Virus record (IMG/VR): IMGVR_UViG_3300040801_002535 | DNA length: 59,732 nucleotides | Source of the DNA: a virus | Strand: one strand, 5' to 3' | Shown here: positions 12,066 through 39,951 of the stretch, piece by piece | Position numbering within the stretch: the first letter of the stretch is position 1 | Layout of the letters: every line of letters begins with the position of its first letter | Made by a program: the position numbers and the translations under genes | The notes under the pieces: generated by a model | The model's input: the letters and a program-made list of their open reading frames with translations, nothing else | Databases searched by the model: none | Told to the model about the DNA's origin: nothing

Positions 12066-12109
12066 TTTAAATCTCCTTTATGAGTTGGTTCCGTTCCCCC
12101 TGATATAAA

Positions 12110-12138
12110 GATTATACCAAAACGGGGGAACGGAGTCA
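12110..12138 (-). promoter_or_regulatory. sigma70-type promoter (TTGACT-17-TATAAT) bracketed by a 10-bp inverted repeat
   Basis: -35 at 12133-12138, -10 at 12110-12115. ccgttccccc (12090-12099) and gggggaacgg (12123-12132) flank the -10. Confidence 0.7.
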
Positions 12139-12152
12139 ACTGAAAAAGAGAC

Positions 12153-12617: not shown

Positions 12618-12623
12618 AATATT

Positions 12624-13547: not shown

Positions 13548-13552
13548 AACAG

Positions 13553-14835: not shown

Positions 14836-14838
14836 TTT

Positions 14839-15528
14839 TTACTCCAAGTCTAGAAGTTTATGGAGCTGTAGGCATACTGTATACCCATGCTCCAGACAGC
14901 TTTCAACAACGGCTTCACGGGCCAAATCATTATGCAGCTGAACCCCGTGATCGATAGGCTGTAAATAAATGTTGCCATCGAAGTTTTCTGGTGGTCGCGC
15001 TGGAATATGATTATAGCCGAGAACTGTAATTGGCAGGCCGTCATCAATGGACAGCTGCTGGAAATCGCCGACATATTTATATGCCGTAATATGTTCCAGA
15101 AGCTCCTCTGCGATGACTGGGGTTTTCGGGCTGCAGACTACGATGACATCATTGTAATCTACAAGCGGGTCGTAGGTTGTTCCGTTAGTCTCAATCTGGA
15201 CAAGGAAACCTTCGCCCTGCAATGCTTCTATCAGCGGACCGATAGACTGTCGAAATGGTTCGCCACCAGTAATAACACAAACATAATTACGATGCGATGG
15301 CGGGACAAGCTGACGAGCTCTAAGCGCTAGACCGTCAGGGTGATGTGTGGCGACATGGCCGTACTTTGTGTCGCACTCTGGACAGGCTAGATTACATCCA
15401 GCCAAGCGAATGAAAACCGCTGGTACTCCCGCTAGCGGGCCTTCTCCCTGTATGGAATAGAAGACTTCGTTAACCGAAAGCTGGTACGGTTTGCCCCGTT
15501 CGATTTGACGGGCCATTTGTGTATTCAT
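14839..15528 (-). CDS. queE: 7-carboxy-7-deazaguanine synthase (radical SAM)
   Basis: FYSIQGEG and RLAGCNLACPECDTKY motifs. AAAGGAGG RBS. Confidence 0.9.
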   Translation of the reverse strand: MNTQMARQIERGKPYQLSVNEVFYSIQGEGPLAGVPAVFIRLAGCNLACPECDTKYGHVATHHPDGLALRARQLVPPSHRNYVCVITGGEPFRQSIGPLIEALQGEGFLVQIETNGTTYDPLVDYNDVIVVCSPKTPVIAEELLEHITAYKYVGDFQQLSIDDGLPITVLGYNHIPARPPENFDGNIYLQPIDHGVQLHNDLAREAVVESCLEHGYTVCLQLHKLLDLE

Positions 15529-20575: not shown

Positions 20576-21271
<696 letters not shown>

Positions 21272-25816: not shown

Positions 25817-26042
25817 CTTTATTCCCTTTCACTTCTTCAGCTGTATACCAAATATCAAGGGCCAACGCGCATGCTGCGGCGTCCATGAATTCCCCATCGG
25901 AGCGAGCATCGTGCATCATATCAATGAGGTCTTCGTGGCCGAGGGCATTCACGTCTTCCGAGTCTGCTTCCAAAGCTACCAAGTACTCATTGACACTTTT
26001 CTCCAATAGGTCTTGCATTCCTTTTGTGTAGATAAGTTTCAT
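25797..26042 (-). CDS. First leftward early gene: small acidic protein (81 aa)
   Basis: AAAGGAGAACAGC-ATG at 26042. 18 Asp/Glu against 9 Lys/Arg. Confidence 0.65.
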   Translation of the reverse strand: MKLIYTKGMQDLLEKSVNEYLVALEADSEDVNALGHEDLIDMMHDARSDGEFMDAAACALALDIWYTAEEVKGNKDVRRIR

Positions 26043-26081
26043 GCTGTTCTCCTTTGTTAGGGTTTCGTTCCTGATAAATAT

Positions 26082-26110
26082 AATATAGTATACTTCGCGT
26101 TCGAGATCAA
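26082..26110 (-). promoter_or_regulatory. Leftward early promoter (TTGATC-17-TATATT)
   Basis: -35 at 26105-26110, -10 at 26082-26087. gtctcttttt element upstream. Divergent from the promoter at 26246-26274. Confidence 0.6.
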
Positions 26111-26245
26111 CATAAAAAGAGACTAAAAGCAAAATAAATCGGCATCTATAGCGTGCCGAGGGCTCCAGTCCCATTATAGCGTACGTAGGCTAAAACATCA
26201 ACACCAAAGATCATTTTTTAGGTATTATTTTATATAAAAAACCAC

Positions 26246-26274
26246 TTGCATTTCCTATTTACTTATCCTATTAT
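26246..26274 (+). promoter_or_regulatory. Rightward early promoter (TTGCAT-17-TATTAT)
   Basis: -35 at 26246-26251, -10 at 26269-26274, 39 nt upstream of ATG 26313. Confidence 0.7.
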
Positions 26275-26312
26275 ACGGAAGTCTTATAAATAAATCGAAA
26301 GGAGGAAAATAC

Positions 26313-26528
26313 ATGGGCACAGAAGACTTTGACAAACCCGGCAAATTGCTCAGGGAAACCACTTTGCTGCTTCAGTCCGATAAAAGGACACTTATCCAGT
26401 TGCATATCGAAACCGGCCTCCCCTACTTTTGGCTGAAATCGCTTATCGATGAAAAGACCAAGAATCCGTCTGTTAATCGAATTGAATATTTGAATGCTAT
26501 ATTGAAGGAGCAGCAACTTGCGAAATAA
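26313..26528 (+). CDS. Small helix-turn-helix-like protein (71 aa)
   Basis: AAAGGAGGAAAATAC-ATG. The segment RTLIQLHIETGLPYFWLKSLID looks HTH-like. First rightward gene, overlapping the primase start. Confidence 0.6.
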   Translation: MGTEDFDKPGKLLRETTLLLQSDKRTLIQLHIETGLPYFWLKSLIDEKTKNPSVNRIEYLNAILKEQQLAK

Positions 26529-28800
26529 CATTCCACTTGAATTGCGCGAGCGAGACCAGTGGGTATGTGCCGGCCTTGATAAGAAACCTATCAATCCGCG
26601 CACTGGGCAAATGGCATCCCCGACAGATCCTGCCACTTGGGGAACCTTCGAAGAAGCCTGCCGAACCGGATACCCGAATGTTGGTTATGTCCTCGCATCA
26701 TGGGACCCCTACTCTATTATTGATTTAGATAATAAGCCGGAGAATCCTGCCACAGCTGAACAGCTTGCCCGCCATGACTCAATCATGGAAGCCTGCCAAA
26801 GTTATACCGAGCGCAGCACTTCAAAGACTGGGTATCATATTATTGTGCGAGGAGCTATCCCGTCCGGCGTTAATCGCGACCACATCGAAATGTATAGCAC
26901 TGGGCGCTATATGATTTGCACCGGCGATACGGTTCATCACCGGCCAATCAAGGACTGCCAAGAAATACTGACCGGAATGTACGGGCAGATGAAACCCGAG
27001 GTAACCGTCGAGCTCTCCGAACAGGATGGCGATGTCAGTGACATGGCTATTGTGGAGATGGCATCGGGCGCTGTGAATGGGGAAAAGTTTGATGCCCTCT
27101 GTTCAGGGGACATGTCTGAATACCCGAGCCAGTCAGAAGCCGATTTGGCGCTCCTGTCTATTATCGCTTTCTACACCCAATCCAATGAGCAGGTACGCCG
27201 CATCTTTAGAATGAGCGCACTTGGCAAAAGAGAGAAGGCCCAAAGAAATGATACCTACATCAACTTCGCCCTTGGCAAGATCAGGGCCAAGCAACCAGCG
27301 CCAGTCGACTTTGACGAACTTAAACTTAACGCGCAAGCGGCGATCGCTACTGCGACGGAAGATCGCCGAGAAGCAGAGAGGCCCGAAATACCCGCAACAA
27401 CTCAGCCCGCTCCAAGCCAGCATGAACAAGCGCCGATTTCTGAACCTGTGCCACTCCACGGCGTTGAACTTCCAATCGGGCTCGTGGGAGAGATGGCACA
27501 GTATATATACTCAAGTGCAATCAGACCCGTACCTGAAATCGCTCTTGCGGCGGCGCTAGCATTGGCAGCCGGCATTTGTGGTCGCAGCTATAATATCAGT
27601 GGCACCGGCCTGAATCAGTATCTTATCATTCTAGCCAAAACAGGCGCCGGCAAAGAAGGCGCTGCTACAGGCATTGATAAGTTGATGTCAGCGGCAAGGC
27701 CAACCATCCCGATGATTGACGAGTTCTCGGGTCCGGGATCTTTCGCCTCTGGACAGGCCATGATAAAGGTTCTAGATACTAAGCCATGCTTCGTTTCGAT
27801 TCTAGGCGAGGTTGGTTTAACCCTCCAGCAGCTCAGCTCTCCTCGCGCTAGCGGTTCTGAGATCATGCTGAAGAAAGTATTCCTTGACCTGTATTCAAAA
27901 TCCGGCTGGGACAAAATGCTCAAGTCAACCGCCTATTCCGATTCTGAGAAGAACACCAAAATAGTCCAAGCGCCGAATGTTACCCTGCTCGGCGAATCAA
28001 CCCCCGAGGCATTCTTCGATGGGATTGACGAGAGCCATATCGCCGAGGGCTTGATACCCCGATTCAGCATAATCGAATATAAAGGAAAACGCCCACCGCT
28101 CAACCATAATGCAGACCATGCACCGGACCAAAGGATGCTCGCGCGCTTTATCGAAATGGCAACCGTTTCCTTGACGATGATGAATAACGGCACTTGCGCT
28201 CCGGTCTCCATCGAGACGGAAGCGAATAACCTGCTACTGGCATTCAACAACGAAGCTGATTCCGTTATCAATAAGTCAAGCCAAGATGTTGAATGTCAAC
28301 TTTGGAATCGGGCCCACCTGAAAGCACTCAAGCTGGCAGGGCTGATAGCAGTCGGCACCGACCCGCATAACGCGGTAGTGACTCCGCAGATAGCGCAATG
28401 GGCAATCACCTTTGTGAAGAAGGATATCACGACCGTTGCCAAGCGGTTTGCATCCGGCGATGTTGGGCAGGGCAACGGAAAACAAATAGCCGATTTGAAA
28501 TCAGCTATCAACCATTTCTTAACTTCCAAACCCGGAGCGCTAAAGAGTTACGGTGTGCCAACCAATTTCCACAGTGACATGATAATTCCATACACTTACT
28601 TTCATCGGCGACTTGATAAGCGCGCCTCGTTTAGAAAAGATAGTGGCGGCTCAACCAGAGCAGTGCAATCCGCTATCCAAGTTCTAATCGACTCGGGAGA
28701 TTTGATTCAGATACCCCCGAAACAAATCACTGACAAGTATAAAAGCAGTTCGAAATGTTTCGCTGTTACAAATAGTTGGGATGGATCGTCTTATTTATAA
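26518..28800 (+). CDS. Bifunctional AEP primase-polymerase fused to a DUF3987/YfjI-like helicase-type domain
   Basis: Prim-pol motifs IIDLDNK, STSKTGYHIIV, EMYSTGRYMICTG. Central SQSEADLALLSIIAFYT (primase C-terminal-type helix bundle). C-terminal P-loop-like ILAKTGAGKEG. TTG start 7 nt after AAGGAG. Confidence 0.8.
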   Translation: MRNNIPLELRERDQWVCAGLDKKPINPRTGQMASPTDPATWGTFEEACRTGYPNVGYVLASWDPYSIIDLDNKPENPATAEQLARHDSIMEACQSYTERSTSKTGYHIIVRGAIPSGVNRDHIEMYSTGRYMICTGDTVHHRPIKDCQEILTGMYGQMKPEVTVELSEQDGDVSDMAIVEMASGAVNGEKFDALCSGDMSEYPSQSEADLALLSIIAFYTQSNEQVRRIFRMSALGKREKAQRNDTYINFALGKIRAKQPAPVDFDELKLNAQAAIATATEDRREAERPEIPATTQPAPSQHEQAPISEPVPLHGVELPIGLVGEMAQYIYSSAIRPVPEIALAAALALAAGICGRSYNISGTGLNQYLIILAKTGAGKEGAATGIDKLMSAARPTIPMIDEFSGPGSFASGQAMIKVLDTKPCFVSILGEVGLTLQQLSSPRASGSEIMLKKVFLDLYSKSGWDKMLKSTAYSDSEKNTKIVQAPNVTLLGESTPEAFFDGIDESHIAEGLIPRFSIIEYKGKRPPLNHNADHAPDQRMLARFIEMATVSLTMMNNGTCAPVSIETEANNLLLAFNNEADSVINKSSQDVECQLWNRAHLKALKLAGLIAVGTDPHNAVVTPQIAQWAITFVKKDITTVAKRFASGDVGQGNGKQIADLKSAINHFLTSKPGALKSYGVPTNFHSDMIIPYTYFHRRLDKRASFRKDSGGSTRAVQSAIQVLIDSGDLIQIPPKQITDKYKSSSKCFAVTNSWDGSSYL

Positions 28801-28915
28801 TATAGGGCATATTCCCCGCAAAGCTAGGAAGACGGTGGTGTTGCGGGTGAAATAATATAATAATAGGGGCCAAGGGTAAATAGGAAAAACAGGGAGTAGA
28901 TATTGTATCCCCCTA

Positions 28916-28972
28916 TAAGGGTTTTATCCTATATTATTATATTATTTATATTATTATTATATATAACCCTTA
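28916..28972. repeat. Inverted repeat TAAGGGTT / AACCCTTA enclosing a 41-bp almost pure A+T tract
   Basis: taagggtt (28916-28923) ... ttatcctatattattatattatttatattattattatatat ... aaccctta (28965-28972), inside the 248-nt non-coding gap after the primase-helicase gene. Confidence 0.9.
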
Positions 28973-29048
28973 GTGGCTGTAGCTTTACGGGTAATATGAT
29001 TATGTATTATTCTTTCTTAAACATATTATTAACTAAAAGGAGATGAAG

Positions 29049-29489
29049 ATGGGTGGTTTGTTTAGTCGTAACAAAGGTAAGCGAGGAGAGCGGGAAGTGG
29101 TGAAAGTACTTCAGCCGTCGATTGATTTGGTATATAATGAGTTCGGAGTAGAGCCGCCCCAGCTGTTGCGGAATCAGATGCAGAGTGCGGTAGGTGGATT
29201 TGATATTGTGGGCATAGAATGGATGGCACTGGAAGTTAAGTTTTGTGAGCAGCTTCAACTCTCGCAATGGTGGGTTCAGACGACTCGCCAAGCCAGCGCG
29301 GGTCAAACCCCAACTTTATTCTATCGAAAGAGTCATTGCAAATGGCGGGTTAAGTTCGAAGCGAAAGTGAATCATGGGAGGAAGATTGTGGTCATTCCTG
29401 TCGATGTCGAGATTGGCCATTTTATCCAGTTCTTTCAAATGCGATTGCGTCTAGAACTAGCAGAACGCTTCTCTGCCCCTCTAGTTTAG
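29049..29489 (+). CDS. PD-(D/E)XK endonuclease, Hjc-like Holliday junction resolvase candidate
   Basis: NKGKRGEREVVKVL ... GGFDIVG ... ALEVKF (E...D...E.K pattern). ATG 29049 lies 6 nt after AAGGAG; ATG 29043 is too close to the RBS. Confidence 0.6.
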   Translation: MGGLFSRNKGKRGEREVVKVLQPSIDLVYNEFGVEPPQLLRNQMQSAVGGFDIVGIEWMALEVKFCEQLQLSQWWVQTTRQASAGQTPTLFYRKSHCKWRVKFEAKVNHGRKIVVIPVDVEIGHFIQFFQMRLRLELAERFSAPLV

Positions 29490-29676
29490 ATCATATAATG
29501 GTCGAATACCACTCGAATAGACTCAATAGTGGGTGTATGCGAGGGTTATTTGGACATGTTGGGATTCTGGGAAGGCATTCGCCGAAAAATGGAGCCCATA
29601 TCGCCCGTATACGCTGCGATCTCGGAGGCATGCGGGTGGTACTATGTCCGGCAGAATTGAATAGCGTATCTGCCTA

Positions 29677-29874
29677 TGGTTCTAGAGGCTGTTTAGACAT
29701 GTCTATTTGAAGTTCTAGAACATGTTTAGCCACCTGTCAAACTAGTTCTAGAACCTGTCTTGCAGTGGTTCTAAAACTATCTAGAACCTGTTTTTGCTTG
29801 GTTCTGGAATCCAATAGAACTTCTTTTTTGGTGGTTCTGGGAGGTGCTAGAACCGATTTAAAAAGGATCTAAAT
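29677..29874 (+). repeat. Array of six direct repeats with exact 33-bp periodicity; core cTAGAACCTGTTT, combined with GGTTCT half-sites into GTTCTAGAAC palindromes
   Basis: TAGAAC (TAGAGG in unit 1) starts at 29683, 29716, 29749, 29782, 29815 and 29848. Perfect palindromes GTTCTAGAAC lie at 29712-29721 and 29745-29754. Split palindromes GGTTCTr-N8-TAGAACC lie at 29767-29788, 29800-29820 and 29833-29854. Confidence 0.9.
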
Positions 29875-29879
29875 ACGAG

Positions 29880-29908
29880 TTGAACCGAAAGCCCAGACAT
29901 CGTATATT
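29880..29908 (+). promoter_or_regulatory. sigma70-type promoter (TTGAAC-17-TATATT) immediately downstream of the 33-bp array
   Basis: -35 at 29880-29885, -10 at 29903-29908, 45 nt upstream of ATG 29954. Confidence 0.55.
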
Positions 29909-29953
29909 CTTTGCAGGGGATAAATAACGATTAATCAGAGAAGGGGTTTGCAT

Positions 29954-30256
29954 ATGATGACGGAAATAGAGCACATCCTAAAAAGATTAAGATATCGGGC
30001 AGAAGATGATAGACCAGATAACCTCACTAGTTTTGAGGTGACCGTTCTAGTTTCAGCCATTGAAGAAAACCAACGGCTGCGAGATGAAAAACTAATCTGG
30101 GCAAAATGGATAGTAGAGAAGACTCCGCCATTATTTAAAGACCACGCTTGTTTGCAATGCTGTCCAGATGATGATCCTGAATATCTTGAAGACGGTTTTG
30201 TTTGTGTTTATCATGAAGCACGGCAAGCCTTAGAAGGGGATTGGCGTGATGCTTAA
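29954..30256 (+). CDS. Hypothetical protein (100 aa)
   Basis: ATG 29954 lies 7 nt after GAAGGGG. Product MMTEIEHILKRLRYRAEDD...; Cys-containing C-terminal part. Confidence 0.6.
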   Translation: MMTEIEHILKRLRYRAEDDRPDNLTSFEVTVLVSAIEENQRLRDEKLIWAKWIVEKTPPLFKDHACLQCCPDDDPEYLEDGFVCVYHEARQALEGDWRDA

Positions 30257-30404
30257 ACGCTGGCTTGTCTTATTGACCAGTCCGATTTGGGCGCCAGTAG
30301 CAGTTGTTGGTTTAGTTGTAATGCACCTGTTGCTCTTCTTTATCGCATGGCCTCTTGTCTGGCTATTCACCGGCAAGGATGTTTACGAGGAGCTGGATAT
30401 ATGA
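30249..30404 (+). CDS. Small membrane protein (51 aa)
   Basis: Too short for the ORF track. MLKRWLVLLTSPIWAPVAVVGLVVMHLLLFFIAWPLVWLF... (two TM-like segments). Overlaps both neighbours (ATGA with the next gene). Confidence 0.5.
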   Translation: MLKRWLVLLTSPIWAPVAVVGLVVMHLLLFFIAWPLVWLFTGKDVYEELDI

Positions 30405-30568
30405 TTTTGTTTCTATCCGTACTGTGCGCCCTGCTATGGTTACTTGGTGGTTGTGCTTGGGTCGTCGCTGGAGAAGCCGCTGGTAATCAATACGCCAAAG
30501 ACCCGTTGAGCAGAGCAATCTGTTATGCGGTCTGGCCTTTTATGACATTGTTTGTAATCTTTAGCTAA
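30401..30568 (+). CDS. Small membrane protein (55 aa)
   Basis: MILFLSVLCALLWLLGGCAWVVAG... and C-terminal AICYAVWPFMTLFVIF. ATGA coupling to the upstream small ORF. The longer track ORF N-terminus is not protein-like. Confidence 0.5.
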   Translation: MILFLSVLCALLWLLGGCAWVVAGEAAGNQYAKDPLSRAICYAVWPFMTLFVIFS

Positions 30569-30581
30569 GAAGGAGTTGGAA

Positions 30582-31016
30582 ATGAAACGTTTGGTTGTAC
30601 TGCTACTTTTGACCGGAATGATAGCATCTTGTGGTGACGGAAACATTCAGGACCGGCTGATGGAGGACTTCACTGCTGGCACGCAGTTTGATATGCCATC
30701 GCCGGAGATACAGTTCGCCAGCGGGGTTAATTCCGACTTCGATGATACCATCATGGATAACCTTCCAGAAGACCAGCGCGTCTGGAATGAGAATATGATG
30801 ATCACCTTCAACTGGACCAGCCTCGAAGAGATCCAAGCCAAAGCAGCTCAGGCCGGCCAACCAAATAACGGTGCGGATATTTACGGGATGGCTTATCCTA
30901 TGGGCAACGTCTGTTACATCTATGCTCAAGTCCCACACGGCTATGACGATTACTTCCGGCTGTACATTATCGGCCACGAGCTGTTGCACTGCTGGGGATG
31001 GCCGGAACATGACTAA
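30582..31016 (+). CDS. Lipoprotein zinc metalloprotease (HExxH)
   Basis: Signal peptide plus lipobox LLLTGMIASC. C-terminal IIGHELLHCWGWPEH (HExxHxxGxxxH). AAGGAG RBS. Confidence 0.7.
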   Translation: MKRLVVLLLLTGMIASCGDGNIQDRLMEDFTAGTQFDMPSPEIQFASGVNSDFDDTIMDNLPEDQRVWNENMMITFNWTSLEEIQAKAAQAGQPNNGADIYGMAYPMGNVCYIYAQVPHGYDDYFRLYIIGHELLHCWGWPEHD

Positions 31017-31182
31017 CCTACCATCTCGAGGCCAGCTCTGTTATATCTGCGGTGGCACCTTAACCGCCGATACCAGAGGTAATCCGACCAATCAAATGGT
31101 TCTGGACCGGAAGAAACGGAAGGTCCATACTAAGTGTATGAAACGGTTTGAGAAGACCAAGCAGCAACTTAACCCAAATTGA
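31009..31182 (+). CDS. Small zinc-ribbon-like protein (57 aa)
   Basis: MTNLPSRGQLCYICGG...KVHTKCMKRF. Overlaps the protease gene stop by 8 nt. Weak RBS. Confidence 0.4.
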   Translation: MTNLPSRGQLCYICGGTLTADTRGNPTNQMVLDRKKRKVHTKCMKRFEKTKQQLNPN

Positions 31183-31194
31183 CAGGAGCTCCAA

Positions 31195-31719
31195 ATGGCA
31201 AAGCGCAACAAAGGTTTCAGAAGTAACAAACACAGCGTCTGCGTACTGCAGGGATGCCGCGAGATTAATCTCTACCGGCTGACTGCTGGGCGCTATGAAG
31301 AAGGCGGCATTCGCCCGACTTCCAAAATCACTCAGGTGTACGGCCGCGTGCCCTGTAACACCTCGGCTCAGCTTCCGTGGGAGCAGCCGCTCAATCCGAA
31401 CGCAATCGAAAATGTTGCCCGTGAGTGGGTTGCTGAGCAGTTCGTTATCAAGCAGGTCGAAGCGAATGACCAGCTTGAGTATCGTGTTACGTTTGACGAG
31501 CGGCACCGCATAAGCGCCAGCGATAAGTTGATCTGGTTTAAGGATGGCCGATATGTGGACGATGGCCGTGCCTACGAAATCCTCGATGACTACACCATCT
31601 CTCTTGGCCGCTATGATGGCGACTTTGATTACATCCTCGCACCAATGGTCTTGCTTGATAGCAGGTCCTTGGATATCCTTGAGCTGGGTGGGCAGTTATC
31701 TATCCACTGGGAAGACTAG
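31195..31719 (+). CDS. Hypothetical protein (174 aa)
   Basis: ACAGGAGCTCCAA-ATG. Followed by two TAGAAC copies and a terminator. Confidence 0.65.
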   Translation: MAKRNKGFRSNKHSVCVLQGCREINLYRLTAGRYEEGGIRPTSKITQVYGRVPCNTSAQLPWEQPLNPNAIENVAREWVAEQFVIKQVEANDQLEYRVTFDERHRISASDKLIWFKDGRYVDDGRAYEILDDYTISLGRYDGDFDYILAPMVLLDSRSLDILELGGQLSIHWED

Positions 31720-31740
31720 AACTTAGAACATAAAAAGAGC

Positions 31741-31772
31741 CTCTGGATTAGCCTCCAGAGGTTTCTTTTTTG
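31741..31772 (+). terminator. Rho-independent terminator
   Basis: cctctgga-ttagcc-tccagagg followed by tttctttttt. Confidence 0.85.
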
Positions 31773-31784
31773 GAACTGGATACC

Positions 31785-32096
31785 ATGTTTAAATATATCA
31801 TGCTCAGCGACGGCAATAGTGATTTCCCGATTATATTCCCGAAGATAATGGTGCATAGCGAAGTCGCTAGTGCTACCCGAAAGATTCTTCGACACACCCG
31901 CGGTAACAGCCTCGAGGTGGTATCAGCTGGTTTCGTTAGTATTAAACCGTCCGATAATATAATGGGTTTCTGGTTTGTTTGTCATGGGGAATCCGAAACC
32001 CTGCAATTGAAATCACGTCCGGAAGATAGCGCCATCGTAACCAATAATCCTTGGTGTCATGGGATAAAGGATAGTGCTCATATTATTTTCGAATAG
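31785..32096 (+). CDS. Hypothetical protein (103 aa)
   Basis: ATG 31785 (MFKYIMLSDGNSDFPIIFP...). Weak RBS. Starts 13 nt after the terminator T-run. Confidence 0.5.
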   Translation: MFKYIMLSDGNSDFPIIFPKIMVHSEVASATRKILRHTRGNSLEVVSAGFVSIKPSDNIMGFWFVCHGESETLQLKSRPEDSAIVTNNPWCHGIKDSAHIIFE

Positions 32097-32109
32097 TTCG
32101 CTTTTTTAG

Positions 32110-32138
32110 TTGACTCCGGAATGGGGTAGTGGTATTAT
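32110..32138 (+). promoter_or_regulatory. sigma70-type promoter (TTGACT-17-TATTAT)
   Basis: -35 at 32110-32115, -10 at 32133-32138, then the taatcaacagg leader. Confidence 0.7.
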
Positions 32139-32177
32139 TAATCAACAGGCACACCCACTCACCCAAAGGAGATCGCC

Positions 32178-32417
32178 ATGCTGAAACAATATCAAATCAC
32201 CCCAGTCAAAACCTACGCCAACAAAAAGAATGCCGAGCGCGCAGTTGCCAAGATGCTCGAAAAGAATCCCGGTCTGAATAAGCTACCCAACAATGCTCAA
32301 CTGGTTTGGTCAGTAATGTGGAACGAGCAAGGTCGTTGTTTTCCAGTCTTCTTCGGGATTACCGCTCTTGAAGCCGGTATCCACCACCTCGGTTTTAACT
32401 GCCTCGCATTCAGCTAA
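32178..32417 (+). CDS. Hypothetical protein (79 aa)
   Basis: AAAGGAGATCGCC-ATG. Confidence 0.65.
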   Translation: MLKQYQITPVKTYANKKNAERAVAKMLEKNPGLNKLPNNAQLVWSVMWNEQGRCFPVFFGITALEAGIHHLGFNCLAFS

Positions 32418-32457
32418 TCAATAGAGCGGGGCTTCGGCCCCGCAGAAGGAGCACATC

Positions 32458-32703
32458 ATGGCAATTCTCACTATCACAAATCAGGAAGAATTCGAAAGCG
32501 CCCAGCAAGAACTATTCGGGCTTGGTTTTGATTGGAAATACAGCGGCAGTAATTTTGTTATGACTCTTGATTTCACGGCCGGTCCAATCCTGCTGAACTG
32601 CAACCTCGACGATAAGACCCTGACTTGGGAACGCCATACGCCGAACGATGCTGTTCTTGCTTTCCTTCGCAGTGTACACGGCCTCACACCCAATAAGGAG
32701 TAA
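32458..32703 (+). CDS. Hypothetical protein (81 aa)
   Basis: GAAGGAGCACATC-ATG, preceded by the UUCG hairpin at 32426-32443. Confidence 0.65.
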   Translation: MAILTITNQEEFESAQQELFGLGFDWKYSGSNFVMTLDFTAGPILLNCNLDDKTLTWERHTPNDAVLAFLRSVHGLTPNKE

Positions 32704-32705
32704 CG

Positions 32706-32990
32706 ATGATTTCCAGAAGATTAGTCTTTGAGCAGCTTAGAGAGCGCATGGAGAAGGTGCCGGTTAAATACGACCAGCTCAACTCTATGCGCCGCGTAAA
32801 GCATCAGCGCGTAAAACTGGTTGGTGTTCAGCACCCGCAGCCGGTCGTCCAATGGGCGGCGGTTGAGTTTCATCTTAACTGCCTCGGCTATGCTGATATC
32901 AAGGTTAGCCTTCAGCGCGAAGTCCAGCCTGACTTGTCGGTTCGTTCGTCTATTGTTTTTCTATTCCCTCTTTCCCGCTATGAGCGATAG
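32706..32990 (+). CDS. Hypothetical protein (94 aa)
   Basis: TAAGGAGTAACG-ATG. Confidence 0.55.
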   Translation: MISRRLVFEQLRERMEKVPVKYDQLNSMRRVKHQRVKLVGVQHPQPVVQWAAVEFHLNCLGYADIKVSLQREVQPDLSVRSSIVFLFPLSRYER

Positions 32991-32999
32991 GAGCAGTCC

Positions 33000-33410
33000 A
33001 TGCCAAAACACGCATTGATAAGTGTTCGCGAAGATACCCACCCGAGTTCTGTTTGCGCGAGTTGCGAGAATGATTGGCATCTTGTGGAAATCAGGATAGG
33101 CAATGTAATCTACGATGTTTGCCGCGACTGCTTCAGCGAGCTAACCCGAATGGTTGACCCGCAAACGGAAGTCGAAAAGAAGCTGGCCGATATGACTCGG
33201 CAGGCGAAGATGTGGGAAGAGCTGTACCGGTGTTTATACATGTCTAGCGAAAAAGGCGAAGACATGCAATCGACAGTTGGCGCCCTGTCTGGAATCTGGA
33301 CGCTACTCAACGTCGAAGACCAGACAGCTGCAATCGGAAAAATCAAACGGTTACTCGAGAGGGAAGATATGGCAAGCCGTCTCAAATACCATGATACGAC
33401 TGGGCAGTGA
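33000..33410 (+). CDS. Hypothetical protein (136 aa) with N-terminal CxxC...CxxC
   Basis: TAGGAGCAGTCC-ATG. VCASCENDW...DVCRDCF. Confidence 0.6.
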   Translation: MPKHALISVREDTHPSSVCASCENDWHLVEIRIGNVIYDVCRDCFSELTRMVDPQTEVEKKLADMTRQAKMWEELYRCLYMSSEKGEDMQSTVGALSGIWTLLNVEDQTAAIGKIKRLLEREDMASRLKYHDTTGQ

Positions 33411-33411
33411 T

Positions 33412-33678
33412 ATGAATATCCAAGGAACCCGTACTGGGCGGTTCAGCTGTTCCGCCTCAAACATAGAAGACGTTCCAAGAAACGTCTCGAATACCCCAAA
33501 GGAGAATACGATGGTTGAAGGCACTTTCAAACTGGCGAAGGCAGCGGCCAAGTCTGGCGGCGACAAGTATGAGGGTAAGCTCGACGGCTCCGACCTGCAG
33601 ATTTATCTGCCGCAGTCTGTGACCCGCGTCGACGGCAAACCTGTGGCGGAATTGGTCCTCACAATAAATGTAAAATAA
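33412..33678 (+). CDS. Hypothetical protein (88 aa; alternative start 33511 gives 55 aa)
   Basis: ATG 33412 has a weak RBS. ATG 33511 follows AAAGGAG at a 7-nt spacing. The N-terminal extension carries a PolA-like TGRFSCSASNIEDVP segment. Confidence 0.5.
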   Translation: MNIQGTRTGRFSCSASNIEDVPRNVSNTPKENTMVEGTFKLAKAAAKSGGDKYEGKLDGSDLQIYLPQSVTRVDGKPVAELVLTINVK

Positions 33679-33691
33679 ATCACTTTTCCTG

Positions 33692-33720
33692 TTGAGTCTA
33701 CTTCTGATTGGTGGTATTAT
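33692..33720 (+). promoter_or_regulatory. sigma70-type promoter (TTGAGT-17-TATTAT)
   Basis: -35 at 33692-33697, -10 at 33715-33720, then the taatcaatcagg leader. Confidence 0.65.
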
Positions 33721-33740
33721 TAATCAATCAGGAGGAACTC

Positions 33741-33962
33741 ATGGAATTAGCAGAAACCATCGAAAACTTAATTGCAGACGCAGCAGGGCGCCCACTCACG
33801 CATCAACTTCAGTGGGCAATCACCTTCATGCCAGAAGGCGTTACCTGCAAAGAGTTTGTTGCTATTGCTGAAGAGCTCGGGTTTGGTGTTAATACCGCCA
33901 AGATTCAATACTACAAAACGATGAAAGAGAATCGCGACATTGAAGCTCTTTGTGCCGCTTAG
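33741..33962 (+). CDS. Fourth member of the shared C-terminal domain family (73 aa)
   Basis: CAGGAGGAACTC-ATG. CKEFVAIAEELGFGVNTAKIQYYKTMKE aligns with the C-termini of genes 15658-17140. Confidence 0.65.
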   Translation: MELAETIENLIADAAGRPLTHQLQWAITFMPEGVTCKEFVAIAEELGFGVNTAKIQYYKTMKENRDIEALCAA

Positions 33963-33968
33963 TTTCAT

Positions 33969-34041
33969 GCTCGGGTAGTACAATGGACTAGTACAGCTGC
34001 CAATAGGTTAGTCGATGCGGGTTCGAGCCCCGTCCCGAGCC
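33969..34041 (+). tRNA. tRNA-like gene with canonical acceptor, D and T arms but a non-canonical anticodon arm
   Basis: Acceptor gctcggg/cccgagc (7 bp). D stem gtac/gtac. T arm gcggg-TTCGAGC-cccgt. The anticodon region gctgccaataggttagt has no 5-bp stem plus 7-nt loop with U33. No encoded CCA. Confidence 0.5.
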
Positions 34042-34210
34042 CTACTTAAACCCGCTCCTCGGAGGTGATATATGAATAGCTGATTCAGAGTACGGCAGGT
34101 ACTGCCTGTCCATTTGGTTTATCGCAGGGAATAACTCTTGAGCGGAGCGTATTAATTCAACCCCGTGATAAACCTTTGGGAGAGTCGTTAACCCGCATTG
34201 AAAGGAAATC

Positions 34211-34444
34211 ATGTTTATTATTCCGTTGCACTCCCTAGAAGGGGTCGAGATTATCATCAAGGCGTTAGAGGAGCGAGCAGCCGAAAAGGGTTGTGTGGCA
34301 TCCGGAGACCTAGCGCTTGGCGTTGCAAAGAAGCTGCACTTCCTCGACGAGAAAGGAAAGCTCGTCCCGTGCGCCTTTGAAAAGTTCGAGGAGCCAGTCG
34401 ACCCAGAGCCGAAGAAACCGAACCATTTGAAATTGGTCAACTAA
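34211..34444 (+). CDS. Hypothetical protein (77 aa)
   Basis: GAAAGGAAATC-ATG. Confidence 0.6.
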   Translation: MFIIPLHSLEGVEIIIKALEERAAEKGCVASGDLALGVAKKLHFLDEKGKLVPCAFEKFEEPVDPEPKKPNHLKLVN

Positions 34445-34457
34445 CAGGAGATACGTT

Positions 34458-34766
34458 ATGGAGCAAGAAGAACCGAAGCAGCAAGCATCCCCGCTACCGC
34501 CGAGAGGCACCAAAGAGTATGACCGCATGCGTTCTGACGGGAAGATTGTTTTCAAGCCACGCCAGATTGAAATGGAGCATACCGACCCCGAGACCGGAGA
34601 AGTAACAAAGACCGGTCAAGTCTGCATTCGGACTCAGGACCAGAAGATGTACGAAGTCGGAAAAGGCGGGCAGCTTCGCAATCTGCAGAAGCCTCCCCGC
34701 ATGTCGAAAAAGCAGCGTCGGAAATGGCGTCAGGAGCAGTTCGCCCTGCACGGCCAACCATTTTAA
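34458..34766 (+). CDS. Hypothetical basic protein (102 aa)
   Basis: ACAGGAGATACGTT-ATG. Lys/Arg-rich C-terminus (PRMSKKQRRKWRQEQ). Confidence 0.6.
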   Translation: MEQEEPKQQASPLPPRGTKEYDRMRSDGKIVFKPRQIEMEHTDPETGEVTKTGQVCIRTQDQKMYEVGKGGQLRNLQKPPRMSKKQRRKWRQEQFALHGQPF

Positions 34767-34913
34767 AACTAACAGCGCCACCTACTAAAGATGTGAGCTA
34801 CTGACATTAGCGGCACTAAGTGCTGTCTGGTATTCGGATTACTATGGTGAGGGCCGGAAGAATCAGGAGTCAGACCGCTGTTGGATTTAATTTGAAAATA
34901 GTCTCTTTTTTAG

Positions 34914-34942
34914 TTGCACTCTTGCCTGATTCGAGGTATTAT
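34914..34942 (+). promoter_or_regulatory. sigma70-type promoter (TTGCAC-17-TATTAT)
   Basis: -35 at 34914-34919, -10 at 34937-34942. gtctcttttttag upstream and taatcatcaggaac downstream. Confidence 0.7.
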
Positions 34943-34983
34943 TAATCATCAGGAACAGGAACCCAACTAATAAGGAGCACGCC

Positions 34984-35214
34984 ATGCTGAAACCAACCAC
35001 CGAAGCAATCGCAAACGCCGAAGCAGTAGTTACCGTCCTTACCGCTAACTTCAAAGGCATCACCCCGCATCGGGACGCGCTGCTGGTTGGCTGCGAGAAG
35101 CAAGCACGCGTTCTTGGCTGCTACCGCGACATCGCTTACATCAAGCGCTTCGCTGAAAGCAAAATCGTTCACTACATCGAAACAGGGCGCCGTCCAGCTC
35201 ACCTGAGAAACTAA
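34984..35214 (+). CDS. Hypothetical protein (76 aa)
   Basis: TAAGGAGCACGCC-ATG. Confidence 0.65.
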   Translation: MLKPTTEAIANAEAVVTVLTANFKGITPHRDALLVGCEKQARVLGCYRDIAYIKRFAESKIVHYIETGRRPAHLRN

Positions 35215-35244
35215 TCTTTTTCTCGGCAGGCAGTCACTTTTATC

Positions 35245-35273
35245 GTGACTACCTGCTCGGGAGATGGGATTAT
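35245..35273 (+). promoter_or_regulatory. Degenerate family promoter (GTGACT-17-GATTAT) overlapped by a 13-bp hairpin
   Basis: -35 at 35245-35250, -10 at 35268-35273. Inverted repeat ggcaggcagtcac / gtgactacctgct (35225-35257). Confidence 0.45.
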
Positions 35274-35313
35274 TACTCATCAGGTACACGAACCCTAAAC
35301 GATGGAGTCAGCC

Positions 35314-35634
35314 ATGCAAACAATCACAATCAATGCTGAAAACTGGGTAGACGGCGAAATTCAACTGAATCTGGATTCCGAGGCCAAGACCTTTTCCATT
35401 CACGATTATGAGTTCATCCTCGTTGAAAGCCAGATGGAAGACGATTTTGAAAGCTACGATATCTTCCATGTTGAGAATGGCAAGCAATCCGAATTCCGCA
35501 CCGGTTGGGTCTGCCGCGAAAACTTTCTCGGCAAAGGGTTCGGGGACTGGGAAGCAATCCAAGACGAAATGATGTCCCGAAGAGGCGAGACCGCTATTAT
35601 TGCGGCGGCTAAACTTGTGGCAAACTTATATTAG
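35314..35634 (+). CDS. Hypothetical acidic protein (106 aa)
   Basis: ATG 35314 lies 7 nt after GGAG (MQTITINAENW...). Confidence 0.6.
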   Translation: MQTITINAENWVDGEIQLNLDSEAKTFSIHDYEFILVESQMEDDFESYDIFHVENGKQSEFRTGWVCRENFLGKGFGDWEAIQDEMMSRRGETAIIAAAKLVANLY

Positions 35635-35642
35635 GAGACGCC

Positions 35643-36017
35643 ATGTTAGGTGACAAAGAGGCGCGCGCCCTGCTGGGCGCCATCGAACTTAATTCTGATT
35701 ATCGGTATGCCGAGCTGACTTCCGATGGCGTTGTTCGCCACCTGATTAGCCATATCGAAATCCCTCGGACTCAGATTCCATACGTGCCACAAGAAGCAGG
35801 CTACTATCGCCTTGGCGAGAATACCTGTAGCGGCACTTGTAAGATTGGTCAGCCAGCGAAGGCTTGTCTGGAAAAGGGTGGCATGTACACCCCCACCAAA
35901 TGCGCGGTCTATACTCTTTGGCCGGCGAATCAGGGCTCTATTCCGATGGACCAGTTGCGCCCGATTCTTGATGCCTATATTAATTTACTCGCGAAGGAGA
36001 ATTCCGATGGGAAGTGA
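35643..36017 (+). CDS. Hypothetical protein (124 aa)
   Basis: TTAGGAGACGCC-ATG. Confidence 0.6.
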   Translation: MLGDKEARALLGAIELNSDYRYAELTSDGVVRHLISHIEIPRTQIPYVPQEAGYYRLGENTCSGTCKIGQPAKACLEKGGMYTPTKCAVYTLWPANQGSIPMDQLRPILDAYINLLAKENSDGK

Positions 36018-36186
36018 ACGCTGCGGCCAGATTTACCGGCTCCATAAAAAGAAACCTAATTATCGTTGTCCCGTATGCAGTTTCCTTTTGGTGCGAGAGA
36101 AGCTGCGCGGCGTTTCGACGCTCTTTTGTGGGCACTGCCGGCCGGACCTAACCCAGCAAGTAATTGCTGAGCACCCGACCTCTTAA
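36007..36186 (+). CDS. Small zinc-ribbon protein (59 aa)
   Basis: AAGGAGAATTCCG-ATG at 36007. YRCPVCSF...LFCGHCRP. Confidence 0.55.
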   Translation: MGSERCGQIYRLHKKKPNYRCPVCSFLLVREKLRGVSTLFCGHCRPDLTQQVIAEHPTS

Positions 36187-36192
36187 AGTGGG

Positions 36193-36221
36193 TTGCCAAT
36201 GGTTGCCAAGTAACCTACAAT
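36193..36221 (+). promoter_or_regulatory. Possible promoter (TTGCCA-17-TACAAT)
   Basis: -35 at 36193-36198 (within the direct repeat ggttgccaa x2), -10 at 36216-36221. It would give a ~140-nt leader containing the hairpin gagcttcg/cgaagctc. Confidence 0.4.
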
Positions 36222-36364
36222 GAAATCTATATCGTACTGACACTCCTTATTGGAAGGCGTGTTCCTGTAGCGGTTTAACGACTGCCCTGAGAGCTTCGAA
36301 ACCCCCTCCCGAAGCTCGATGGGGAGCAGTTTAAATCCACCAATCATTTTAAAAGGAGTCACCT

Positions 36365-36889
36365 ATGAGTGTCGCTAGAACAGTTAGAATTGATCAGCAC
36401 GTAAAACGGCAGCACGGTTGGAATGCCCGAGGTAATATCATCTACCCAGGAATGCTTTTGGCATCCAGCGATGTACATCTAACACAGGGCGTCCGCGCTG
36501 AGCCTTTGCGGTCTGGCGACTTCGTCAACAATGATCCGTGTCCAATGGGTTATTTTGTTGCACTCGAAAACGAGCTCGAAGGGGCTGGAATCAACGACCC
36601 GATTGGAGACGGACTCACAACTACTATCATCCCGCTTCAGGTCATGCCTATGATTATCGGGGACAAATTTCTCGGCATCGTTAAGCAAAACTCATCACTG
36701 AATATGGGCTCCCAAGTTGTAGTTTGTTCCGAAATAGCAGACGCCGGAATGGTTTGCCGGACAACTGATCTACCTACCGGAGCATCTGAAGTCCATGTTG
36801 GAATCGCAATGTCAGACCCAGAAGATGCTACCAGCGCTGATATCAGTAAGCGCCGCATCGAGATCATGATCAACCCGACTTCCGGCTGA
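36365..36889 (+). CDS. Paralogue of the head decoration-like protein (174 aa)
   Basis: AAAAGGAGTCACCT-ATG. FVALENELEGAGINDP...VHVGIA aligns with LIAVENDLYGKGVSDS... of 45248-45691. Confidence 0.65.
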   Translation: MSVARTVRIDQHVKRQHGWNARGNIIYPGMLLASSDVHLTQGVRAEPLRSGDFVNNDPCPMGYFVALENELEGAGINDPIGDGLTTTIIPLQVMPMIIGDKFLGIVKQNSSLNMGSQVVVCSEIADAGMVCRTTDLPTGASEVHVGIAMSDPEDATSADISKRRIEIMINPTSG

Positions 36890-36918
36890 TCAGCTTAAAC
36901 CGCCATAGCCCAGAAGAA

Positions 36919-36950
36919 AGCCTCGAATTCGTTCGGGGCTTTTTTTTTTT
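36919..36950 (+). terminator. Rho-independent terminator
   Basis: agcctcgaa-TTCG-ttcggggct followed by a 10-T run. Confidence 0.85.
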
Positions 36951-36964
36951 GTTCTCTTTTTTCC

Positions 36965-36993
36965 TTGATTCGTAATCGCTCCTTTGGTATACT
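36965..36993 (+). promoter_or_regulatory. sigma70-type promoter (TTGATT-17-TATACT)
   Basis: -35 at 36965-36970, -10 at 36988-36993. Confidence 0.65.
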
Positions 36994-37025
36994 CTTTATA
37001 TCGAAAGCAACCAAGGAGATTACAA

Positions 37026-37217
37026 ATGCCAAAACAAACTATCACTTCTTTAAAACCGGGATTCATCTTCATTCCTTTCGGGGCTTATGCCATTCAAGAT
37101 TTGCCTGCTGCTTACGAAGTCCATTTTCGGGGCGGGGAAGGGGTCATCTATCAACTCACTACAAAAGATCCAAACGGCGCATGCCCAATCTCTTTCGAGG
37201 ATTATCAGTCTTATTAA
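37026..37217 (+). CDS. Hypothetical protein (63 aa)
   Basis: CAAGGAGATTACAA-ATG at 37026. Bracketed by a promoter and a terminator, so it forms a monocistronic unit. Confidence 0.65.
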   Translation: MPKQTITSLKPGFIFIPFGAYAIQDLPAAYEVHFRGGEGVIYQLTTKDPNGACPISFEDYQSY

Positions 37218-37224
37218 CCAGTTG

Positions 37225-37265
37225 CCCCGACCTCAGCTACCCTCTTATGGGGTCGGGGATTTTTT
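37225..37265 (+). terminator. Rho-independent terminator
   Basis: ccccgacc ... ggtcgggg (8-bp stem, 18-nt loop) followed by atttttt. Confidence 0.7.
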
Positions 37266-37278
37266 AAAAGGAGTAAAT

Positions 37279-37803
37279 ATGTCTTACGGTGGGCGCATAC
37301 ACAAACAGCTATTGAAATCGTTTAACTATGGTGAGGCATCCGGTCTTTATATCTGCCGTCACTGCCATGGTGGCATTGACGCTAAGACTGCCAACCCGTC
37401 AAGAATCATGGCCGATATTCCTCACTCACGGAATTGCCCGTACAGCCTAGCTCTTGAACTAATGGAAGCCGAGTTTATTGTTCCACTCGAAGGTATCATG
37501 CACGAGCTCGAACAGGCAGACGGCAAACATGGCCCGATGCTGGACCCAGTCGAAGGGTTGTACACCTTGCAGTGCGAAGTCATGGAACTGGCACGCGAGG
37601 TGCATCGGAAGCATAAAGATCCGGCTGCAGCGCTGAACGAGGCGCGGCAAGTTGTGGTCATGGGTATCAAATTCCTCCGTGACTGTATCCCGCAAATGCT
37701 CGATACTACAACTAACGATGTAACTGTTACTATTGAATCTGATGTTATTGAGCCAGAAGAATTTGTCAAGAAATTACGCGTTTTCTTGGGGGCGCCGAAA
37801 TAG
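37279..37803 (+). CDS. Hypothetical protein (174 aa), N-terminal Cys/His cluster and helical C-terminal part
   Basis: AAAAGGAGTAAAT-ATG at 37279. ICRHCHGG...HSRNCP. A MazG-like helical region is possible but was not verified. Confidence 0.6.
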   Translation: MSYGGRIHKQLLKSFNYGEASGLYICRHCHGGIDAKTANPSRIMADIPHSRNCPYSLALELMEAEFIVPLEGIMHELEQADGKHGPMLDPVEGLYTLQCEVMELAREVHRKHKDPAAALNEARQVVVMGIKFLRDCIPQMLDTTTNDVTVTIESDVIEPEEFVKKLRVFLGAPK

Positions 37804-38105
37804 TGCCGAAGGTATCCTTTGACAGCATCCATACCGTAACCGCGAAGGCTTGGCTGATTAAGTACAACCACCACCTTTGCTGGTTGCCGCGTTCTCGGGT
37901 AAGGCTGCTGGAAAAAGAAAAGAAGTTCGATGTTCCGCAGTGGTTGTTTGAAAAGCTGGATTGGTTTGAGGACGAGCATGATATTGATTTTGTTATGTCA
38001 AAAGAGGAATACATGACGCGCTTGGAACCCCTCGAGGAAACCATTTTCCGGTTGGCAGGCGGTTTGAAGAACCGGAAGATTCCACTCCCACCGAAAGGTT
38101 TGTGA
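37803..38105 (+). CDS. Hypothetical protein (100 aa)
   Basis: GTG start overlapping the upstream stop (TAGTG). Continuous coding with its neighbours. Confidence 0.5.
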   Translation: MPKVSFDSIHTVTAKAWLIKYNHHLCWLPRSRVRLLEKEKKFDVPQWLFEKLDWFEDEHDIDFVMSKEEYMTRLEPLEETIFRLAGGLKNRKIPLPPKGL

Positions 38106-38608
38106 TGGACCACGAAGAAGATGCAATGGAGCGCTATATGAATGGCGAAGAATCTGAAGGCGAATTCCAAGCAAGGCAAATGCAAGAAGGTAGACGGCAT
38201 TGTGGCAGCGTCCAGCTACCCTCCCCCGAGCCCTACCCATTTGGCGCCTGTCATTATTGTGGCGGGCAAGTACGGGCAGGTCATAGCTCAGAAATACACC
38301 CAGCTCGCCAACCCGCTATTGTCCACATATGCGAACACTGCGGTGCCTATGTTGGTTGCCATCCCGGAACAGGAAAGGCACTCGGGACCGTCGCTGATAA
38401 GGATCTTCGCTCGTGGCGGAATCTCGCGCATCTGGCTGTCGACGTTTATTGGGAGAATGACCAGCTTAGTCGTAGCGATATGTATCGCGCTTTGGCTGTT
38501 CATCTTGGCGTCAATAAAAAATGGTGCCATATAGCAATGTTTGATATATCTTTGTGTAAGCGGGTGGTCTTAGTCCGCTTTCCTTTTATGGAAGGGTGGA
38601 TGAAATGA
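38105..38608 (+). CDS. DUF3268-like zinc-finger protein
   Basis: CHYCGG...ICEHCGAYVGCHPGTGKALGTVADKDLRSWRNLAH matches the pattern I recall for phage DUF3268 proteins. Confidence 0.55.
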   Translation: MDHEEDAMERYMNGEESEGEFQARQMQEGRRHCGSVQLPSPEPYPFGACHYCGGQVRAGHSSEIHPARQPAIVHICEHCGAYVGCHPGTGKALGTVADKDLRSWRNLAHLAVDVYWENDQLSRSDMYRALAVHLGVNKKWCHIAMFDISLCKRVVLVRFPFMEGWMK

Positions 38609-39423: not shown

Positions 39424-39951
39424 ATGGATGAAAAAACAATACCACCTTGGGAACGGAAAAAGGTTGTAGCCTCTGAAGAGGCTGCTCCGGAGCGCTCTAA
39501 ACATGCGCCCATTAACCCAGTTCCCGGTGTCACTAATCTAAAGACTTCCGAGCATAATCTTGCCCGTCGTAAGACACAAGCGGAAGCCCTCGAGCTTCGC
39601 ATGACTGGAATGAGTTTCCCGAAGATTGCAGCTGAGCTCGGTATTACATCGCAGTATGCGCATAAGCTAGTCACCAAAGCGCTTCAGGAAGTCACCCAAG
39701 AGCCAGCAGAGGAGCTCTTGGTTCTGGAAACTGAAAGACTAGATGCCCTTATGAATGCCGCCTATAAAAGAGCAATTCTCAATGGCGGTTCCTACGATAT
39801 AAATTCTTGCCTCAAGATCATGGAGCGCCGTGCTAAGCTGCTCGGCCTCGATGGTGCCATTAAAGTCGAAGACGTTACCCAGACGGAAAGCCCTCTCGGT
39901 CGCTTGAGAACAATGTTCGGGCTATCTGCGGAAGTGCAGAATGCTACCTGA
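39424..39951 (+). CDS. terS: Terminase small subunit
   Basis: HTH segment LRMTGMSFPKIAAELGITSQYAHKLV followed by a helical oligomerisation-like region. Lies directly upstream of terL. Confidence 0.7.
   Translation: MDEKTIPPWERKKVVASEEAAPERSKHAPINPVPGVTNLKTSEHNLARRKTQAEALELRMTGMSFPKIAAELGITSQYAHKLVTKALQEVTQEPAEELLVLETERLDALMNAAYKRAILNGGSYDINSCLKIMERRAKLLGLDGAIKVEDVTQTESPLGRLRTMFGLSAEVQNAT

Follow-up and report, generated by a model that had tools for sequence, protein, structure and literature searches.

The phage genome analyzed here, a window of 59,732 nucleotides from the IMG/VR record IMGVR_UViG_3300040801_002535, contained a statistically robust array of dyad-symmetric sites at 33-bp spacing that was unique in the genome and that ran into the -35 hexamer of a predicted promoter. 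We favour, at a probability a little short of even, the reading of this array as an operator or DNA-wrapping site, helically phased and specific to the lineage, that governs the leading operon of an ORFan gene block of 10 kb. This reading is preferred because the only promoter-like site before that operon has a -35 hexamer into which the array extends. A first-pass annotation, made from the sequence alone, had offered three functions for the array. Among them the cooperative operator is favoured, the iteron-type origin is disfavoured and a partition or packaging-type site found no support. If the favoured reading is true, the array would be a compact natural case of cooperative regulation in which the spacing is exactly three turns and the half-sites come in two geometries. 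Moreover, the phage belongs to a lineage without a cultured relative and carries a 10-kb block of unknown genes, and an operator at this place would give a handle for finding out what the regulator is and what the block does.

The hexamer TAGAAC started at positions 29716, 29749, 29782, 29815 and 29848 and its degenerate form TAGAGG at 29683, with a step of exactly 33 bp throughout, as the first-pass annotation had stated. When the genome was scanned at periods of 12–60 bp, no other run of five identical hexamers with constant spacing was found. Among 200 Markov-1 random genomes, 171 had no chain of at least three hexamers, the longest chain was three and none (0/200) had a chain of four or more. 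The left half-sites (GGTTCT or AGTTCT) of units 1–3 started at 29678, 29711 and 29744 and abutted the right half to form GTTCTAGAAC. The closed dyads were GGTTCTAGAGGC of unit 1 (29678–29689), whose right half is degenerate, AGTTCTAGAACA of unit 2 (29711–29722), which contains a perfect 10-bp palindrome at 29712–29721, and AGTTCTAGAACC of unit 3 (29744–29755), with a perfect palindrome at 29745–29754; the coordinates of both palindromes agreed with those annotated before. The left half-sites of units 4–6 had been described as displaced upstream, and the displacement was measured here as exactly 10 bp, with starts at 29767, 29800 and 29833. The open geometry GGTTCT-N10-AGAACC was found in unit 4 (29767–29788) and unit 6 (29833–29854), and with one mismatch, GGTTCT-N10-AGAACT, in unit 5 (29800–29821). 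Unit 6 also kept a residual closed dyad, GGTGCTAGAACC, at 29843–29854. A shift of exactly 10 bp keeps the partner half-site on the same side of the helix. The spacer of unit 1 contained a 12-bp palindrome, TAGACATGTCTA, which had been reported earlier at 29693–29704; the palindrome exists and its correct position is 29694–29705.

The in-register consensus of the six units was.gttCTAGAACcTgTTT.....tG.tTct...A. Conservation across the units was gathered in a single contiguous 13-bp core, CTAGAACcTgTTT (unit positions 5–17), whose six phased copies occupied 29682–29859 on the plus strand, and only 3 of 20,000 column permutations matched this concentration. The T-tract of the core recurred in phase every 33 bp. 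Beyond the 13-bp core and the 6-bp partner, the sequence of the spacer was free and its length was fixed. The exact phasing, the clustering of conserved positions in the core and the one-turn displacement of the partner thus back the earlier suggestion that bound proteins would line up on one DNA face. TRF did not report the array, given that its units are only about 50% identical overall. No full dyads were found elsewhere in the genome, and this single cluster suggests that the binding protein would have one dedicated target. CTAG was two-fold under-represented genome-wide, yet densest at the array. The AT content of the array was only 56–64%, and its units ran in one direction with no AT-rich centre.

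In addition to the six annotated units, a seventh, degenerate open dyad, GGATCT-N10-TGAACC, was identified at 29865–29886 with two mismatches and an offset of 32 bp. The dyad spacings over seven units were therefore 33, 33, 33, 33, 33, and 32 bp. The calculated chance of finding two or fewer mismatches at the phased position ±1 was about 1e-4. The right half of unit 7 is the -35 hexamer of the predicted sigma-70-like promoter TTGAAC-17-TATATT (29880–29908, plus strand), which was assigned from its position and from which transcription would start near 29915. The scan of the genome yielded 21 promoter-like matches against 19 expected, which is not above chance, and 29880–29908 was the sole match ahead of the downstream operon. 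This predicted promoter lacked an extended -10 and was weaker than the other early promoters (TTGAnT-17-TG-TATTAT). Relative to the predicted start, the centres of the open dyads were at about -40 (unit 7), -71.5, -104.5, and -137.5 and those of the closed dyads at about -165.5, -198.5, and -231.5. Taken together, these features of the array and the promoter lead us to favour cooperative binding of a dimeric protein along one face of the DNA, possibly with wrapping.

The downstream operon opens with a ribosome-binding site and ATG (GAAGGGG-N7-ATG, 29940–29956, plus strand, with the ATG at 29954), and the array was 46–280 bp upstream of them. The gene-free gap that holds it (29490–29953) was 464 bp in length, compared with no more than 270 bp elsewhere, and is the longest non-coding stretch of the genome, as noted before. 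The first operon of the ORFan block (29954–31719) begins with a gene at 29954–30256 on the plus strand, and its products are a 100-aa acidic protein, two small membrane proteins, an HExxH lipoprotein and a 174-aa ORFan. No homologs of the first downstream protein were found. The two membrane proteins, of only 51 and 55 aa, are encoded at 30249–31016 together with the lipoprotein, whose HExxH metalloprotease-like motif is HELLHCWGWPEHD. These products suggest an envelope-directed function, such as superinfection exclusion.

If the array is an operator, its seven dyads, spaced by 33 bp or three turns at 11 bp per turn, would be the sites of a dimeric DNA-binding protein, for which a phage dimer or a host factor is possible. 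Dimers bound on a single DNA face could polymerize or could wrap the DNA around an oligomer. The site nearest to the promoter includes bases of its -35 hexamer; how much of the array is occupied would determine how active the promoter at 29880–29908 is, and with it how strongly the operon is expressed. We infer that the direction of this regulation might be either repression by occlusion or roadblock or activation of the class-II/III type. To accommodate half-sites that either abut or lie one turn apart, the dimer would have to be flexible or to bind that face in two modes. A phased operator comprises at least three dyads at integral helical turns, and seven were found here. Several observations stand against an operator. 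Six or seven sites over 210 bp exceed the needs of most operators; the array is within 0.9 kb of the likely origin; no regulator candidate was found among the neighbouring small proteins; and the promoter match is not enriched over chance. The neighbouring small proteins, which are the candidates for the binder, had no match in Pfam, PHROG, NCBIfam, PADLOC, or PDB. Moreover, a four-member family of small HTH-like proteins, which had been put forward as possible binders, was not reproduced in the searches, and no paralogous small-protein family was found in the genome.

The array resembles several characterized systems to different extents. An oligomeric regulator with an operator array is found in E. 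coli, whose Lrp acts at pap and ilvIH. Lrp-type arrays comprise three to six sites at about 30–33 bp centre to centre, and the DNA wraps an oligomer of dimers. Similar to the array described here, the operators of Lrp/AsnC (FFRP) proteins, such as BarR, consist of semi-palindromes evenly spaced on one face across the promoter region, and octameric Lrp-type regulators contact 3–5 such sites and wrap the promoter DNA (PMC10201364). However, the phage genome yielded no Lrp-like gene, the half-sites GGTTCT/AGAACC occur in two geometries (0 or 10 bp apart) instead of a single 15-bp box, and seven units exceed the need of a single octamer. Class II and class III activator-dependent promoters have 22-bp dyad sites near -41.5 and -72. 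The array is similar to them in that its 22-bp dyads are centred about -40 and -71.5 from the predicted start and the -35 hexamer is sub-optimal. Different from these promoters, it has five further upstream sites, and the start from which the distances were counted is inferred. The iteron plasmids pPS10, F, P1, and RK2 also possess direct repeats at integral helical turns, and a related inverted repeat serves as the operator at the promoter (PMC4980987). Their repeats are, however, spaced by 22 bp rather than 33 bp, and the array is not accompanied by a Rep gene, an adjacent AT-rich unwinding element or DnaA boxes.

The genome is a complete circular assembly of 59.7 kb with an exact 117-bp terminal overlap (1–117 = 59616–59732). 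No relative at the DNA level was found among 50,697 phage records, and a DNA similarity search with the region 29000–30300 against the same records gave no match. A minus-strand module at 7.3–25.6 kb encodes PolA, a clamp-like factor, a 7-deazaguanine cluster, a helicase, a Cas4-type exonuclease, SSB, and Sak4. The plus-strand early region starts at 26.3 kb with a 71-aa putative HTH protein, followed by a primase-helicase of 760 aa (26518–28800, plus strand), a PDDEXK_15/RusA-like nuclease (29043–29489, plus strand) and the block of small ORFan genes, which extends over about 10 kb to TerS (39424–39951). TerL is encoded at 39941–41239, and the structural genes are beyond the terminase. The genome yielded neither an integrase nor a repressor that would point to a plasmid-prophage lifestyle, and the phage appears lytic.

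For comparison, 80 IMG/VR loci with primase-helicase homologs (40–63% identity) were assembled. Homologs of the HTH protein (46 loci), the primase (80 loci) and the PDDEXK nuclease (34 loci), as well as of the helicase and the Cas4 exonuclease, were identified in these loci, and homologs of the genes from 29954 to 33410 were found in none of them. In the 40-kb relatives, the terminase is within about 3 kb of the primase. Since the downstream genes are missing in relatives in which the terminase follows the primase closely, the array marks the left edge of an accessory insertion of 10 kb. The first-pass annotation had proposed to look for conservation of the spacing in related phages; an equivalent array was absent from all 80 loci, and a 62-kb relative, Shewanella phage S0112, had no comparable array either. 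The sole other copy, which was found by exact-protein look-ups, came from another sequencing run (L002) and was 99.98% identical. It is the same phage, so that selection is not demonstrable by comparison.

The comparison also pointed to a different place for the replication origin. The N-terminus of the primase-helicase matched an NrS-1-type prim-pol (Foldseek E about 1e-12) and its middle domain is AAA+/MCM-like; the structure model predicted with confidence a C-terminal domain of helices and a beta-hairpin (residues 653–750). Directly 3' of the primase of the relatives, before the PDDEXK_15 gene, is an intergenic region of about 300 bp with an AT content of 57% versus 49%. In 33% of the usable loci, against 7.8% of the control windows, a hexamer occurred at least five times in the 350 bp that follow the primase. 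The repeats were lineage-specific 6-8-mers at 8–11-bp spacing, in opposed sets around an AT-rich centre; for instance, such iteron regions were found at 9224–9548 of L122, 9772–10044 of L153, and 4403–4636 of L156 (among loci L122–L201). The centre of the iteron region contained a conserved GAGTAGATA(A/T) ... TATATCCCCTTAAA box, often with flanking AACCTATTGAAGTCATT repeats.

In the window, the homolog of the iteron and AT-rich region of the relatives was found at 28801–29042, where it abuts the 3' end of the primase gene. It aligned with the relatives via the boxes ATAGGGG, GGAGTAGATAT, TATCCCCCTAT/TTAAA, and TATATATAACCC. This segment was locally the most AT-rich (66–80% over most of its length) and possessed nested dyad symmetry (28808–28826 with 28980–28998, and 28845–28865 with 28949–28969). 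Its repeats, ATAGGG/CCCTAT and ATAATA, had no motif in common with the array. The cumulative GC skew had its global minimum at 28730. Given its homology to the iteron regions of the relatives and the GC-skew minimum, the origin is probably at 28801–29042, about 0.9 kb upstream of the array, rather than at the array itself. A 47-aa ORF at 28903–29046 within this probable origin is probably spurious.

The P4 alpha ori/crr system and the SaPI Rep/PriRep origins similarly have an array of short repeats near the primase-helicase gene. These origins are directly 3' of the initiator gene with iterons of 5–8 bp at 8–11-bp spacing, a layout that fits 28801–29042 and the intergenic regions of the relatives and is unlike the array. 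The iterons of SaPI Rep/PriRep are directly downstream of the rep ORF in opposed orientation around an AT-rich centre and are recognized by a C-terminal winged helix (PMC9371898). The comparison looks like a family-wide SaPI-like origin architecture among phages with this primase-helicase. A SaPI-like iteron region 3' of the initiator across dozens of phages would correct the origin assignment for this genome, and it provides a testable origin prediction for the whole group of phages with an NrS-1-type prim-pol/helicase, a more transferable result than the array. An origin at the array, by comparison, would have neither two opposed sets of iterons that flank an AT-rich centre nor iterons that abut the initiator gene, given that the array begins 877 bp past the primase stop codon, beyond the PDDEXK gene; nor was its position conserved among the 80 loci with homologous initiators. 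No DnaA box with one mismatch or fewer was found from 26036 to 38318, and no initiator of the Rep_3, RepA or phage O family among the neighbouring proteins.

These results also bear on whether the array serves replication in an auxiliary role, as a second iteron-type origin, a replication enhancer like P4 crr or a protein-DNA fork barrier that aids the neighbouring origin. We consider this unlikely. Its phased sites are 0.9 kb from the primase-helicase gene and the GC-skew minimum, and its direct 13-bp cores with inverted half-sites recall the Rep plasmids, in which direct iterons are found together with an inverted-repeat operator. Self-loading primase-helicases are also known to work on arrays of short repeats (PMC9371898). 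However, the array has a motif unlike the repeats of 28801–29042, is missing from every related locus, lacks an AT-rich centre between opposed repeat sets and, as stated above, is accompanied by neither DnaA boxes nor a Rep_3/RepA/O-type initiator gene. A role as a partition centromere or as a pac/cos packaging site is extremely doubtful. The centromeres sopC of F (12 x 43 bp, with a 16-bp dyad in each) and parC of R1 (10 x 11 bp around a promoter) are likewise composed of tandem dyad-bearing units that abut or overlap a promoter, and dyad-repeat arrays upstream of or overlapping a promoter are typical of this type of centromere. Neither ParA/ParM/TubZ-like partition NTPase genes nor ParB/ParR-like genes for a centromere-binding protein were found in the phage, however, and the products of the downstream operon had no NTPase matches; the phage shows no sign of a plasmid-prophage and appears lytic. 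Packaging sites of the pac/cos type are in or beside the TerS gene, whereas TerS and TerL (39.4–41.2 kb) are 10 kb from the array.

Transcription termination offers a different account of the open dyads, which would form RNA hairpins followed by U-tracts; placed where the HTH-primase-PDDEXK operon ends, they would act as a series of weak intrinsic terminators or as an insulator. No other terminator was found between the PDDEXK gene and the next promoter, and units 4, 5, and 6 had predicted hairpins of -8.4, -6.2, and -12.5 kcal/mol, respectively, of which the first two were trailed by UGUUUUUG and UCUUUUUU, respectively. Against this, the hairpin of unit 6 had no U-tract, units 1–3 formed no hairpin despite sharing the core and the phase, the stems were short and AU-rich compared with the canonical GC-rich terminators of the phage, and the hairpin of unit 5 was no better than shuffled sequence (z = -0.44). 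Termination, moreover, needs neither 33-bp phasing nor a unit inside a -35 hexamer, and we consider this explanation quite improbable. Still less probable is a functionless remnant of an old, decaying 33-bp tandem duplication. It would be in agreement with the comparison, in which the only other copy is that of the same phage and gives no evidence of selection, and with the location of the array at the border of a recently acquired accessory block. Neutral decay would, however, scatter the conserved columns, and the contiguous core argues against a uniformly decaying duplication, as do the phase unbroken by indels over six units, the shift of the partner half-sites by exactly one helical turn and the avoidance of CTAG elsewhere in the genome. 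More speculatively, and with little probability, the array might be an undescribed nucleoprotein switch, in which an unknown dimer, ORFan-encoded or from the host, would engage its half-sites in either of two registers that differ by one helical turn, closed at the distal units and open at the proximal ones, with about 210 bp of DNA wrapped. Through such a switch, expression of the accessory block would be tied to firing of the neighbouring primase-helicase origin or to transcripts that read through from the replication operon, perhaps on DNA in which the G of GA contexts is modified to 7-deazaguanine by the phage DpdA/Que proteins.

The operator motifs and element ends of other known systems did not fit the array in spacing or sequence. 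They included the operators of alphaproteobacterial LexA (GTTC-N7-GTTC), the Gram-positive Cheo box (GAAC-N4-GTTC), CodY, parS, KorA/KorB and the sigma-54 promoter. The ends of Tn7/Mu-type transposons also misfit, and no matching inverted array was found at the other border of the accessory block. A scan of IMG/VR for three TAGAAC at 33 bp gave more than 119 matches, none of which was related to the phage. A metagenome scan for two GTTCTAGAAC at 33 bp gave 15 matches, all unrelated: satellites, coding repeats in an FtsK-like gene and 11-bp TAGAACTGTTY tandems. Two scans of genome collections for the array motif gave 0 and 9 matches, respectively, which is about chance level, and these were taxonomically scattered. 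Rfam gave nothing at the gathering threshold and only a chance-level match at E ≤1, and a literature search for the motif returned only eukaryotic heat-shock elements and cloning primers. Dense non-coding arrays of a similar motif, TAGAACTGTT(T/C) or GTTCTAGAAC at 11-bp spacing, were found in unrelated metagenomic contigs (110–220 of L213, 1180–1260 of L211, and 1540–1800 of L203).

As the first-pass annotation had listed, TAGAAC-type sites were also present outside the array. The half-sites TCTAGAAC/CAGAAC were found at 29449–29466, at the 3' end of the PDDEXK gene, where the TAGAAC at 29452 is exactly 7 x 33 bp upstream of unit 1; its in-phase place may be due to chance (about 1 in 33). A doublet of TAGAAC with copies 7 bp apart was found on the plus strand at 31717–31729, at the end of the first operon, and is a possible candidate for a distal site for looping to the array. 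A bidirectional terminator at 31737–31764 directly follows the doublet. The plus strand of 29490–29677, just upstream of the array, was predicted to adopt a multi-stem RNA fold of -69.1 kcal/mol (z = -3.0), and none of 200 shuffles was as stable; the minus strand was weaker. Candidate roles for this segment, which had no Rfam match, are those of a structured 3' UTR, of a small RNA or of a signal for single-strand initiation.

Several other features of the genome were also observed. A long ORF (frame +2, 599 codons without a stop) spans the circular junction from about 57.9 kb to 834. The ORF lists miss this junction-crossing ORF, and 57.9–59.7 kb is thus only seemingly ORF-free. ARAGORN called a tRNA at 33969–34042 with the unusual anticodon ATA (Tyr), which could be a mis-call or a decoding oddity of the phage. 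The 7-deazaguanine DNA-modification cluster (10640–15528, minus strand) was complete, with DpdA/Tgt-like, FolE, QueD, QueC, and QueE. Hypermodification of the phage DNA is probable and could alter how proteins recognize G-containing sites, TAGAAC among them. Finally, the SSB gene contained coding tandem repeats at 20606–20821 (AGCAGG x7, plus 15- and 30-bp units), and the SSB genes of the relatives had similar repeats at the same position.
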